Positions 19,637-54,958 of a DNA stretch of 64,000 nt are shown in pieces. Position 1 is the first letter of the stretch; every line of letters begins with the position of its first letter. A model generated the notes under the pieces. That model was not told where the DNA came from and did no database searches. It saw only the letters and a list, made by a program, of their open reading frames with translations. The DNA comes from Escherichia coli (GTDB lineage: Bacteria; Pseudomonadota; Gammaproteobacteria; Enterobacterales; Enterobacteriaceae). The DNA lies in assembly GCF_003018255.1 (NCBI RefSeq), contig NZ_CP027440.1, one strand, 5' to 3'. The position numbers were made by a program, and so were the translations under genes.

Positions 19637-19668
19637 TTAACCATTCCCATACAATTAGTTAACCAAAA

Positions 19669-19698
19669 AGGGGGGATTTTATCTCCCCTTTAATTTTT
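19669..19698 (+). terminator. probable terminator after clpX (GGGGA/TCCCC stem, U-rich tail)
   Basis: Hairpin and T-rich run read from sequence. Confidence 0.6.
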
Positions 19699-19713
19699 CC
19701 TCTATTCTCGGCG

Positions 19714-19740
19714 TTGAATGTGGGGGAAACATCCCCATAT
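19714..19740 (+). promoter_or_regulatory. sigma-32 heat-shock promoter of lon (TTGAAT-N13-CCCCATAT)
   Basis: Motifs read about 85-110 nt upstream of lon ATG. Confidence 0.7.
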
Positions 19741-19823
19741 ACTGACGTACATGTTAATAGATGGCGTGAAGCACAGTCGTGTCATCTGATTACCTGGCGG
19801 AAATTAAACTAAGAGAGAGCTCT

Positions 19824-37381: not shown

Positions 37382-37495
37382 GGGGGCTCTGTTGGTTCTC
37401 CCGCAACGCTACTCTGTTTACCAGGTCAGGTCCGGAAGGAAGCAGCCAAGGCAGATGACGCGTGTGCCGGGATGTAGCTGGCAGGGCCCCCACCC
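37382..37495 (+). ncRNA. ffs: 4.5S RNA (signal recognition particle RNA), 114 nt
   Basis: Sequence GGGGGCUCUGUUGGUUCUCCCGCAACGC...GGCAGGGCCCCCACCC read directly; matches 4.5S RNA including the conserved GGAA tetraloop region. Confidence 0.95.
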
Positions 37496-53026: not shown

Positions 53027-54958
53027 ATGAGTTATCAGGTCTTAGCCCGAAAATGGCGCCCACAAACCTTTGCTGACGTCGTCGGCCAGGAACATGTGCT
53101 GACCGCACTGGCGAACGGCTTGTCGTTAGGGCGTATTCATCATGCTTATCTTTTTTCCGGCACCCGTGGCGTCGGAAAAACCTCTATCGCCCGACTGCTG
53201 GCGAAGGGGCTAAACTGCGAAACCGGCATTACCGCGACGCCGTGCGGCGTGTGCGATAACTGTCGTGAAATCGAGCAGGGGCGCTTTGTCGATCTGATTG
53301 AAATCGACGCCGCCTCGCGCACTAAAGTTGAAGACACTCGCGACCTGCTGGATAACGTCCAGTACGCTCCGGCGCGTGGTCGTTTCAAAGTTTATCTCAT
53401 CGACGAAGTGCATATGCTGTCGCGTCACAGCTTTAACGCACTGTTAAAAACCCTTGAAGAGCCGCCAGAGCACGTTAAGTTTTTGCTGGCGACGACCGAT
53501 CCGCAGAAATTGCCGGTGACGATTTTGTCACGCTGTCTGCAATTTCATCTCAAGGCGCTGGATGTCGAGCAAATTCGCCATCAGCTTGAGCACATCCTCA
53601 ACGAAGAACATATCGCTCACGAGCCGCGGGCGCTGCAATTGTTGGCACGCGCCGCTGAAGGCAGCCTGCGAGATGCCTTAAGTCTGACCGACCAGGCGAT
53701 TGCCAGCGGTGACGGCCAGGTTTCAACCCAGGCGGTCAGTGCGATGCTGGGTACGCTTGACGACGATCAGGCGTTATCGCTGGTTGAAGCGATGGTCGAG
53801 GCCAACGGCGAGCGCGTAATGGCGCTGATTAATGAAGCTGCTGCCCGTGGTATCGAGTGGGAAGCGTTGCTGGTGGAAATGCTCGGTCTGTTGCATCGTA
53901 TTGCGATGGTACAACTTTCGCCTGCTGCTCTTGGCAACGACATGGCCGCCATTGAGCTGCGGATGCGTGAACTGGCGCGCACCATACCGCCGACGGATAT
54001 TCAGCTTTACTATCAGACGCTGTTGATTGGTCGCAAAGAATTACCGTATGCGCCAGACCGCCGTATGGGTGTTGAGATGACGCTGCTGCGCGCGCTGGCG
54101 TTCCATCCGCGTATGCCGCTGCCTGAGCCAGAAGTGCCACGCCAGTCCTTTGCGCCCGTCGCGCCAACGGCAGTAATGACGCCAACACAGGTGCCGCCGC
54201 AACCGCAATCAGCGCCGCAGCAGGCACCGACTGTACCGCTCCCGGAAACCACCAGCCAGGTGCTGGCGGCGCGCCAGCAGTTGCAGCGCGTGCAGGGAGC
54301 AACCAAAGCAAAAAAGAGTGAACCGGCAGCCGCTACCCGCGCGCGGCCGGTGAATAACGCTGCGCTGGAAAGACTGGCTTCGGTCACCGATCGTGTTCAG
54401 GCGCGCCCGGTGCCATCGGCGCTGGAAAAAGCGCCAGCTAAAAAAGAAGCGTATCGCTGGAAGGCGACCACTCCAGTGATGCAGCAAAAAGAAGTGGTCG
54501 CCACGCCGAAGGCGCTGAAAAAAGCGCTGGAACATGAAAAAACGCCGGAACTGGCGGCGAAGCTGGCGGCAGAAGCCATTGAGCGCGACCCGTGGGCGGC
54601 TCAGGTGAGTCAACTTTCGCTACCAAAACTGGTCGAACAGGTGGCGTTAAATGCCTGGAAAGAGGAGAACGGCAACACGGTGTGTCTGCATTTGCGCTCC
54701 TCTCAGCGTCATCTGAATAACAGTGGCGCACAGCAAAAACTGGCTGAAGCGTTGAGCACGTTAAAAGGTTCAACGGTTGAACTGACTATCGTTGAAGATG
54801 ATAATCCCGCGGTGCGTACGCCGCTGGAATGGCGTCAGGCGATATACGAAGAAAAACTTGCGCAGGCGCGCGAGTCCATTATTGCGGATAATAATATTCA
54901 GACCCTGCGTCGGTTCTTCGATGCGGAGCTGGATGAAGAAAGTATCCGCCCCATTTGA
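53027..54958 (+). CDS. dnaX: DNA polymerase III subunit tau (full-length product)
   Basis: Track ORF 643 aa; Walker A GTRGVGKTS; Zn module CGVCDNC. Confidence 0.97.
   Translation: MSYQVLARKWRPQTFADVVGQEHVLTALANGLSLGRIHHAYLFSGTRGVGKTSIARLLAKGLNCETGITATPCGVCDNCREIEQGRFVDLIEIDAASRTKVEDTRDLLDNVQYAPARGRFKVYLIDEVHMLSRHSFNALLKTLEEPPEHVKFLLATTDPQKLPVTILSRCLQFHLKALDVEQIRHQLEHILNEEHIAHEPRALQLLARAAEGSLRDALSLTDQAIASGDGQVSTQAVSAMLGTLDDDQALSLVEAMVEANGERVMALINEAAARGIEWEALLVEMLGLLHRIAMVQLSPAALGNDMAAIELRMRELARTIPPTDIQLYYQTLLIGRKELPYAPDRRMGVEMTLLRALAFHPRMPLPEPEVPRQSFAPVAPTAVMTPTQVPPQPQSAPQQAPTVPLPETTSQVLAARQQLQRVQGATKAKKSEPAAATRARPVNNAALERLASVTDRVQARPVPSALEKAPAKKEAYRWKATTPVMQQKEVVATPKALKKALEHEKTPELAAKLAAEAIERDPWAAQVSQLSLPKLVEQVALNAWKEENGNTVCLHLRSSQRHLNNSGAQQKLAEALSTLKGSTVELTIVEDDNPAVRTPLEWRQAIYEEKLAQARESIIADNNIQTLRRFFDAELDEESIRPI
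54294..54350 (+). other. dnaX: dnaX programmed -1 ribosomal frameshift cassette producing gamma: SD-like AGGGAG (54294-54299), slippery A_AAA_AAG (54310-54316), -1 frame stop TGA (54319-54321), downstream stem-loop (about 54323-54350)
   Basis: All elements read in the dnaX frame (AAA=Lys429, AAG=Lys430); a -1 shift yields ...K-K-E-stop, a 431-aa gamma. Confidence 0.9.

Follow-up and report, generated by a model that had tools for sequence, protein, structure and literature searches.

The dnaX locus of this Escherichia coli genome (NZ_CP027440.1) raises the question of how a single gene comes to encode two proteins, tau and gamma, when only one long reading frame runs through it. In the window, by which we mean the whole stretch of 64,000 nucleotides that was analysed, the sole long ORF over 54290–54355 is 53027..54958 on the plus strand, and the ORF list accordingly gives tau only, as the preliminary description of this DNA had said of any single-frame ORF caller. 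The ORF scores 982 bits against the NCBIfam equivalog NF005942 'DNA polymerase III subunit gamma/tau' (cut-off 613), and its neighbours are arranged as in K-12, with ybaN and apt upstream and ybaB, recR and htpG downstream (ybaN-apt-dnaX-ybaB-recR-htpG). We are practically certain that the element lying inside this ORF, 3′ of the part encoding domain III, is the programmed −1 ribosomal frameshift cassette of E. coli dnaX; no feature of the sequence speaks against this reading.

The sequence of 54290–54355 reads gtgcAGGGAGcaaccaaagcAAAAAAGagtgaaccggcagccgctacccgcgcgcggccggtgaat, and the elements recognised in and around it are collected in Table 1. Their presence, phase, spacing and conservation, as well as the domain content of the two products, were observed directly, and all six sequence-level features that were tested as marks of an E. 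coli-type dnaX frameshift element were found.

Table 1. Positions of the dnaX gene, its two coding paths and the frameshift elements in the window.
Feature	Position	Strand	Basis and remarks
dnaX zero-frame ORF (tau)	53027..54958, end including stop codon	+	ORF list; 643 aa, 71.0 kDa
Gamma coding path	53027..54321	+	zero frame to AAG 54314-54316, −1 slip, GAG 54316-54318, TGA 54319-54321
Match to Rfam RF00382 (DnaX ribosomal frameshifting element)	54291..54355	+	96.8 bits, E = 5.8e-20
Internal SD-like stimulator AGGGAG	54294..54299	+	sequence; 10 nt upstream of heptamer
10-nt spacer CAACCAAAGC, SD-like element to slippery site	54300..54309	+	sequence
Slippery heptamer A_AAA_AAG, Lys429-Lys430 of tau frame	54310..54316	+	computed phase
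−1 frame GAG (Glu431 of gamma), then TGA	54316..54321	+	translation one base back: ...S K K E *
3′ stimulatory stem-loop	54322..54351	+	fold of 54317-54355; same helix in Rfam consensus structure

The preliminary description had placed a complete cassette at 54294–54350, with AGGGAG ending 10 nt before a heptamer in the tau frame, and both the spacing and the frame were borne out. As 54310, where the heptamer begins, is position 3 of codon 428 counted from 53027, the phase is indeed A_AAA_AAG, on which that description had staked its claim; the tau frame around it reads GC-A AAA AAG AGU GAA, which is the X_XXY_YYZ arrangement. The statement that the −1 frame runs immediately into TGA was right about the stop codon and wrong about 'immediately', one sense codon (GAG) being read first, as the KKE ending given in the same description itself implies. 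Likewise, the cassette lies where it had been placed, but an end at 54350 clips U54351 of the closing A-U pair of the stem. The −1 frame nevertheless stops almost at once, so that the shifted product is the shorter gamma. For AGGGAG and the 3′ end of 16S rRNA (GAUCACCUCCUUA) a 6-bp duplex of −7.4 kcal/mol is predicted; on the strength of this predicted duplex, AGGGAG may pair with the anti-SD.

The heptamer as such is common, AAAAAAG occurring 22 times in the window against 14 copies expected. Of these copies, just the one at 54310 stands in A_AAA_AAG phase, considering stop-to-stop frames of at least 150 codons. Downstream of the frameshift site, dnaX contains two more AAAAAAG heptamers, at 54440-54446 and 54518-54524 (+), which encode KKE and KKA in tau. 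They were rejected as slippage sites, as their offset from 53027 is 0 and they are read as AAA_AAA_G, which is not a phase for tandem slippage.

The GC-rich stem-loop that had been foreseen downstream of the heptamer appeared when 54317–54355 was folded: the segment forms a single hairpin of 11 bp with an MFE of −19.1 kcal/mol (z = −2.33; 3 of 200 shuffles were as stable), made up of a 5′ arm at 54322-54333, the 5-nt loop UACCC at 54334-54338 and a 3′ arm at 54339-54351, with A54328, C54342 and G54345 unpaired. It starts 5 nt past the heptamer (6 nt without the closing A-U pair). Taken alone, the z-score of −2.33 points to a modest excess of predicted stability. Within the 91-nt context 54285-54375 the fold was no better than that of shuffled sequences (z = −0.60), while the same local hairpin persisted; given this value and the lack of support for the additional long-range pairs, we claim the local hairpin alone.

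The element itself is already known. The frameshift in K-12 dnaX was reportedly described in 1990 by Tsuchihashi and Kornberg, by Flower and McHenry and by Blinkowa and Walker, and further work on it is said to have been published by Larsen et al. in 1994 and 1997. The match to RF00382 covers model positions 1-65 of 65 at a score well above the gathering score of 35, PGAP labels exactly the same 65 nt 'DnaX frameshifting element' in other E. coli genomes, and gamma is entered in the RefSeq record of K-12 as a separate, two-piece joined CDS (YP_009518751.1). As public annotation pipelines thus already flag the element, nothing here is hidden or new, and the window adds no new biology. Over 87 nt the cassette and its surroundings are identical to K-12 MG1655, with which the locus shares the gene, the context, the element spacing and the products. 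The full-length Rfam match, the base-for-base agreement with MG1655, the joined gamma CDS of K-12 and the published experiments together bear out the identity that the preliminary description had assigned from the letters alone.

Within the species, the cassette is held far more tightly than the gene around it. Of 5426 complete E. coli genomes, 5424 have a match to whole dnaX and two have none; among the 5424, identity is at least 99% in 69 and 95–99% in the others, whereas over the 111 nt surrounding the site 5401 of the 5426 genomes (5424 matching) reach 99% identity or more. Plasmid-labelled records account for two of the 5424 dnaX matches, and in the O157:H7 genome H45 the match extends over just 75% of the 111-nt cassette query.

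To look beyond E. coli, we scanned 100,044 species genomes (one per species) for the pattern AGGGAG-N10-AAAAAAGAGTGA, which gave at least 120 loci. Since SD, spacer length, heptamer and AGTGA were all demanded by this pattern, which left the hairpin free, the comparative set tests conservation of the hairpin only. Among the matches listed, 76 of 120 loci lie in dnaX homologues by tblastn, and the genera represented there include Escherichia, Citrobacter, Enterobacter, Kluyvera, Kosakonia, Pluralibacter and Pantoea as well as Erwinia, Mixta, Serratia, Buttiauxella, Siccibacter and Trabulsiella. One more locus (L067) carries a dnaX-like cassette, though tblastn picked up no tau match for it. A hairpin sits at the same position in 52 of the 53 distinct downstream segments among the matches listed, with −18 to −30 kcal/mol, and in many of these segments the upper stem GCCGC/GCG-GC is swapped for a different GCGC/GCGC helix with loops of 3–8 nt.

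Covariation was assessed in an alignment of 62 sequences, namely 61 distinct Enterobacterales dnaX sequences from the matches listed plus the window, using the eight pairs common to all forms. In this alignment 98.8% of the stem cells are paired, compared with 20–58% when the partners are slid. At the closing pair, 54322-54351, 41 sequences have A-U and 19 have G-C; pair 54326-54347 shows one change from G-C to A-U, and the observed covariation score was reached by none of 500 shuffles. Three of the eight common pairs are invariant and most of the lower stem is unchanging, so these pairs are uninformative on covariation. Judged from these alignments, the hairpin is kept in Enterobacterales dnaX through compensatory changes and alternative upper stems.

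Some of the matches deserve separate mention. Candidatus Pantoea persica (L053:2969-3036, minus strand) has an intact dnaX of 642 aa in which SD-like element, heptamer and −1 TGA are all present, but where, compared with other Pantoea, the hairpin has lost its loop and 3′ arm to an in-frame deletion; in this natural hairpin-less variant frameshifting would be expected to be less efficient. The contig with the title 'Chryseobacterium sp. 18061' (L066:3021-3088, plus strand) has almost the same cassette as 'Citrobacter sp. 18056' (L063), which stems from the same study, and is likely a mislabelled or contaminated assembly. Around 35 Collinsella loci among the matches listed were rejected as dnaX-like elements, as they mark the start of a sigma-70 gene and the hairpin is absent. 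At L035:9769-9796 (minus strand), as at about 35 other loci, the match is an exact AGGGAG-N10-A_AAA_AAG-AG-TGA in slippery phase with a −1 stop, situated at the extreme 5′ end of a sigma-70 (rpoD-like) gene and 3′ of a dnaG-like gene (MKGESVPKKSES...). AGGGAG resembles a ribosome-binding site that belongs to this sigma-70 gene and serves an in-frame GTG 5 nt downstream, and folding of the sequence 3′ of the pattern found no hairpin (z = +1.7). The recurrence in Collinsella probably reflects a coincidence that counts many times over because the genus has many species clusters; abortive frameshifting directly following initiation is conceivable instead. The remaining loci among the matches listed, about eight, are scattered and were taken as chance.

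The Collinsella matches bear on one objection to the cassette in the window, namely that its motifs are functionless and happen to coincide where tau has a GC-rich linker containing Lys. The same 28-nt in-phase pattern does occur at the 5′ end of Collinsella rpoD by apparent coincidence, AAAAAAG with its 22 copies is not rare, and GC-rich coding sequence folds often. Chance is, however, hard to reconcile with an Rfam E-value of 5.8e-20, with a cassette that is near-invariant in about 5400 E. coli genomes while the remainder of dnaX varies by up to 5%, and with a stem that covaries across genera, and it is already refuted by published mutagenesis and experiments on the identical sequence (PMC5009743, PMC7282821, PMC5389563). 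We regard it as vanishingly improbable.

Those experiments show that the sequence shared by the window and K-12 directs frameshifting (PMC5009743, PMC5389563, PMC7282821). About 50% of ribosomes shift to −1 and end one codon later (PMC5009743), and an efficiency of 50–80% is given elsewhere, falling from about 60% to about 25% without the hairpin (PMC7282821). In vitro, frameshifting dropped from 84% to 50% when AGGGAG was mutated, from 84% to 20% when the hairpin was deleted, and to 2% when the heptamer was changed to G_AAG_AAG (PMC5389563). The slippage mechanism, an efficiency of about 50% and the incorporation of gamma into the holoenzyme would carry over from this work to the window, and by virtue of the identical K-12 sequence gamma is presumably made by ribosomal slippage at about 50% in this strain as well.

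The run of As at the site also calls to mind a different route, in which RNA polymerase slips during transcription and the ribosome merely reads the edited mRNAs normally. This is the documented source of gamma in Thermus thermophilus (PMC5009743), whose dnaX resembles the present one in yielding tau and a truncated gamma at roughly 1:1 from one gene, and it has been inferred for dnaX genes with 9–10 As (PMC5009743, PMC3711429). The T. thermophilus site, however, comprises 9 As slipped on by the polymerase, whereas the window has six As together with stimulators directed at the ribosome, and efficient transcriptional slippage has been described from about 8–9 As upward, the Thermus type calling for a run of about 8–10 (PMC5009743, PMC3711429). 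Furthermore, slippage in transcription needs neither a conserved, correctly spaced SD-like element nor a covarying hairpin, and a defined dnaX mRNA gave 60–84% frameshifting in purified in vitro translation (PMC7282821, PMC5389563), which makes this route highly improbable here.

Experiments published for the identical sequence have demonstrated that ribosomes slip on two tRNA-Lys while translocating, with the hairpin and SD:anti-SD pairing as stimulators, and in the window this would take the following course. A ribosome on A_AAA_AAG would hold tRNA-Lys on AAA in the P site and on AAG in the A site, while the 11-bp hairpin at the mRNA entry channel would hinder EF-G-driven translocation and AGGGAG, 10 nt upstream, would still be paired to the 3′ end of 16S rRNA. 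During stalled, repeated attempts at translocation both tRNAs would re-pair one base back, on AAA_AAA, after which GAG would be read and translation would stop at UGA. About half of the ribosomes would thus release gamma (431 aa), and the others tau (643 aa). Two published observations concern the same steps: for the sole tRNA-Lys, AAA is a better pairing partner than AAG (PMC5009743), and two-tRNA slippage is translocation-dependent (PMC6771820).

The two products differ in their domain content. As the preliminary description had stated, the translations give a gamma of 431 aa ending in KKE and a tau of 643 aa from one gene; the masses computed from the sequence are 47,544 Da (47.5 kDa) and 71,037 Da, respectively, and the C-terminus of gamma reads ...ATKAKKE. 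In Pfam terms, tau comprises domains I-III at residues 20-358 (domain III at 232-358), domain IV at 417-498 and domain V at 500-640, with the slippery codons 429-430 past domain III and within the N-terminal edge of domain IV. Ending at residue 431, gamma thus retains domains I-III, the ATPase module of the clamp loader, but lacks nearly the whole of domain IV, which binds DnaB, and all of domain V, which binds the Pol III alpha subunit. A chain of 431 aa that matches residues 1-430 is deposited in the PDB as 8giy_B, and full-length tau is found there too.

A short form of DnaX could in principle be cut from tau, the cassette being inert. In Caulobacter, the protease acting on DnaX is ClpXP. 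Caulobacter likewise obtains two DnaX isoforms from one locus, and there gamma is cleaved proteolytically from tau, a route that is real in C. crescentus (PMC5009743); according to PMC4756838, some authors also took the gamma in E. coli holoenzyme preparations for a breakdown product of tau. Proteolysis cannot, however, supply Glu431, which is encoded in the −1 frame only, and mutations of the heptamer, the SD or the hairpin directly alter the yield of the frameshift product (PMC5389563). Compensatory evolution of the hairpin is not expected of inert sequence either, and Dohrmann et al. report that gamma is a genuine holoenzyme component, with one gamma per Pol III* complex (PMC4756838). Proteolysis in place of frameshifting is thus very improbable for the window. 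Mutants that make tau only are described as UV-sensitive and defective in Pol IV-dependent mutagenesis (PMC4756838).

Set beside other recoding systems, the dnaX frameshift cassette shares single elements with several of them. Transposases of the IS3 family (IS911, IS150) use the same type of A_AAA_AAG heptamer, frequently with an upstream SD-like stimulator and a downstream RNA structure (PMC5009743). Their shifted product is a longer OrfAB fusion made at a low-to-moderate level, whereas the shifted product of dnaX is the shorter one and is made at about 50%, and their RNA structures can be more elaborate than the dnaX hairpin, as in the three-way junction of IS911. The RF2 gene prfB likewise employs an internal SD:anti-SD interaction as 5′ stimulator (PMC5009743), yet it shifts in the +1 direction with a much shorter spacer, serves autoregulation at a UGA codon and has no 3′ hairpin. 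In the 'reversed' dnaX genes of Chlorobi and others, described by Antonov et al. in 2013, two DnaX isoforms come from one locus as they do here (PMC5009743, PMC3711429); in those genes gamma is the zero-frame product and tau requires recoding, whereas tau is a single zero-frame ORF in the window.

Programmed −1 frameshifting in cellular genes has one of its founding examples in the dnaX cassette, which is also a standard model in single-molecule and kinetic work on the maintenance of the reading frame. Recognition of the cassette in a genome matters for correct annotation because a single-frame ORF caller cannot see gamma, and bears on clamp-loader stoichiometry, i.e. tau2-gamma versus tau3. 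One may further ask whether the cassette acts as a condition-sensitive valve and not as a fixed 1:1 splitter, the gamma:tau ratio moving with aminoacyl-tRNA supply or ribosome traffic. Candidate routes are a slow one-tRNA 'hungry' pathway, which operates when aminoacyl-tRNA is limiting (PMC6771820), and the effects of ribosome collisions, as described in vitro and with reporters (PMC6815119). If this were so, the composition of the replisome would be tuned under stress. The idea has its basis in the literature, with nothing peculiar to this window, and we consider it rather unlikely.

Outside the cassette, the tau encoded here and that of K-12 agree in 638 of 643 residues. The five differences (S548N, D549G, A551T, R566S and M578T; window 54668-54760, residues 548-578) all fall into domain V, far downstream of the frameshift site. 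Together with a whole-gene identity that reaches 99% in only 69 of 5424 E. coli genomes, set against the near-invariant cassette, this clustering suggests a divergent or recombinant allele of the dnaX 3′ part. Two further Rfam families were matched elsewhere in the window, the sRNA family sraA (RF02029) over its full length at 19657-19752 on the minus strand (106.7 bits vs 56), and the bacterial small SRP RNA (4.5S RNA, ffs; RF00169) at 37390-37486 on the plus strand (68.1 bits vs 40).
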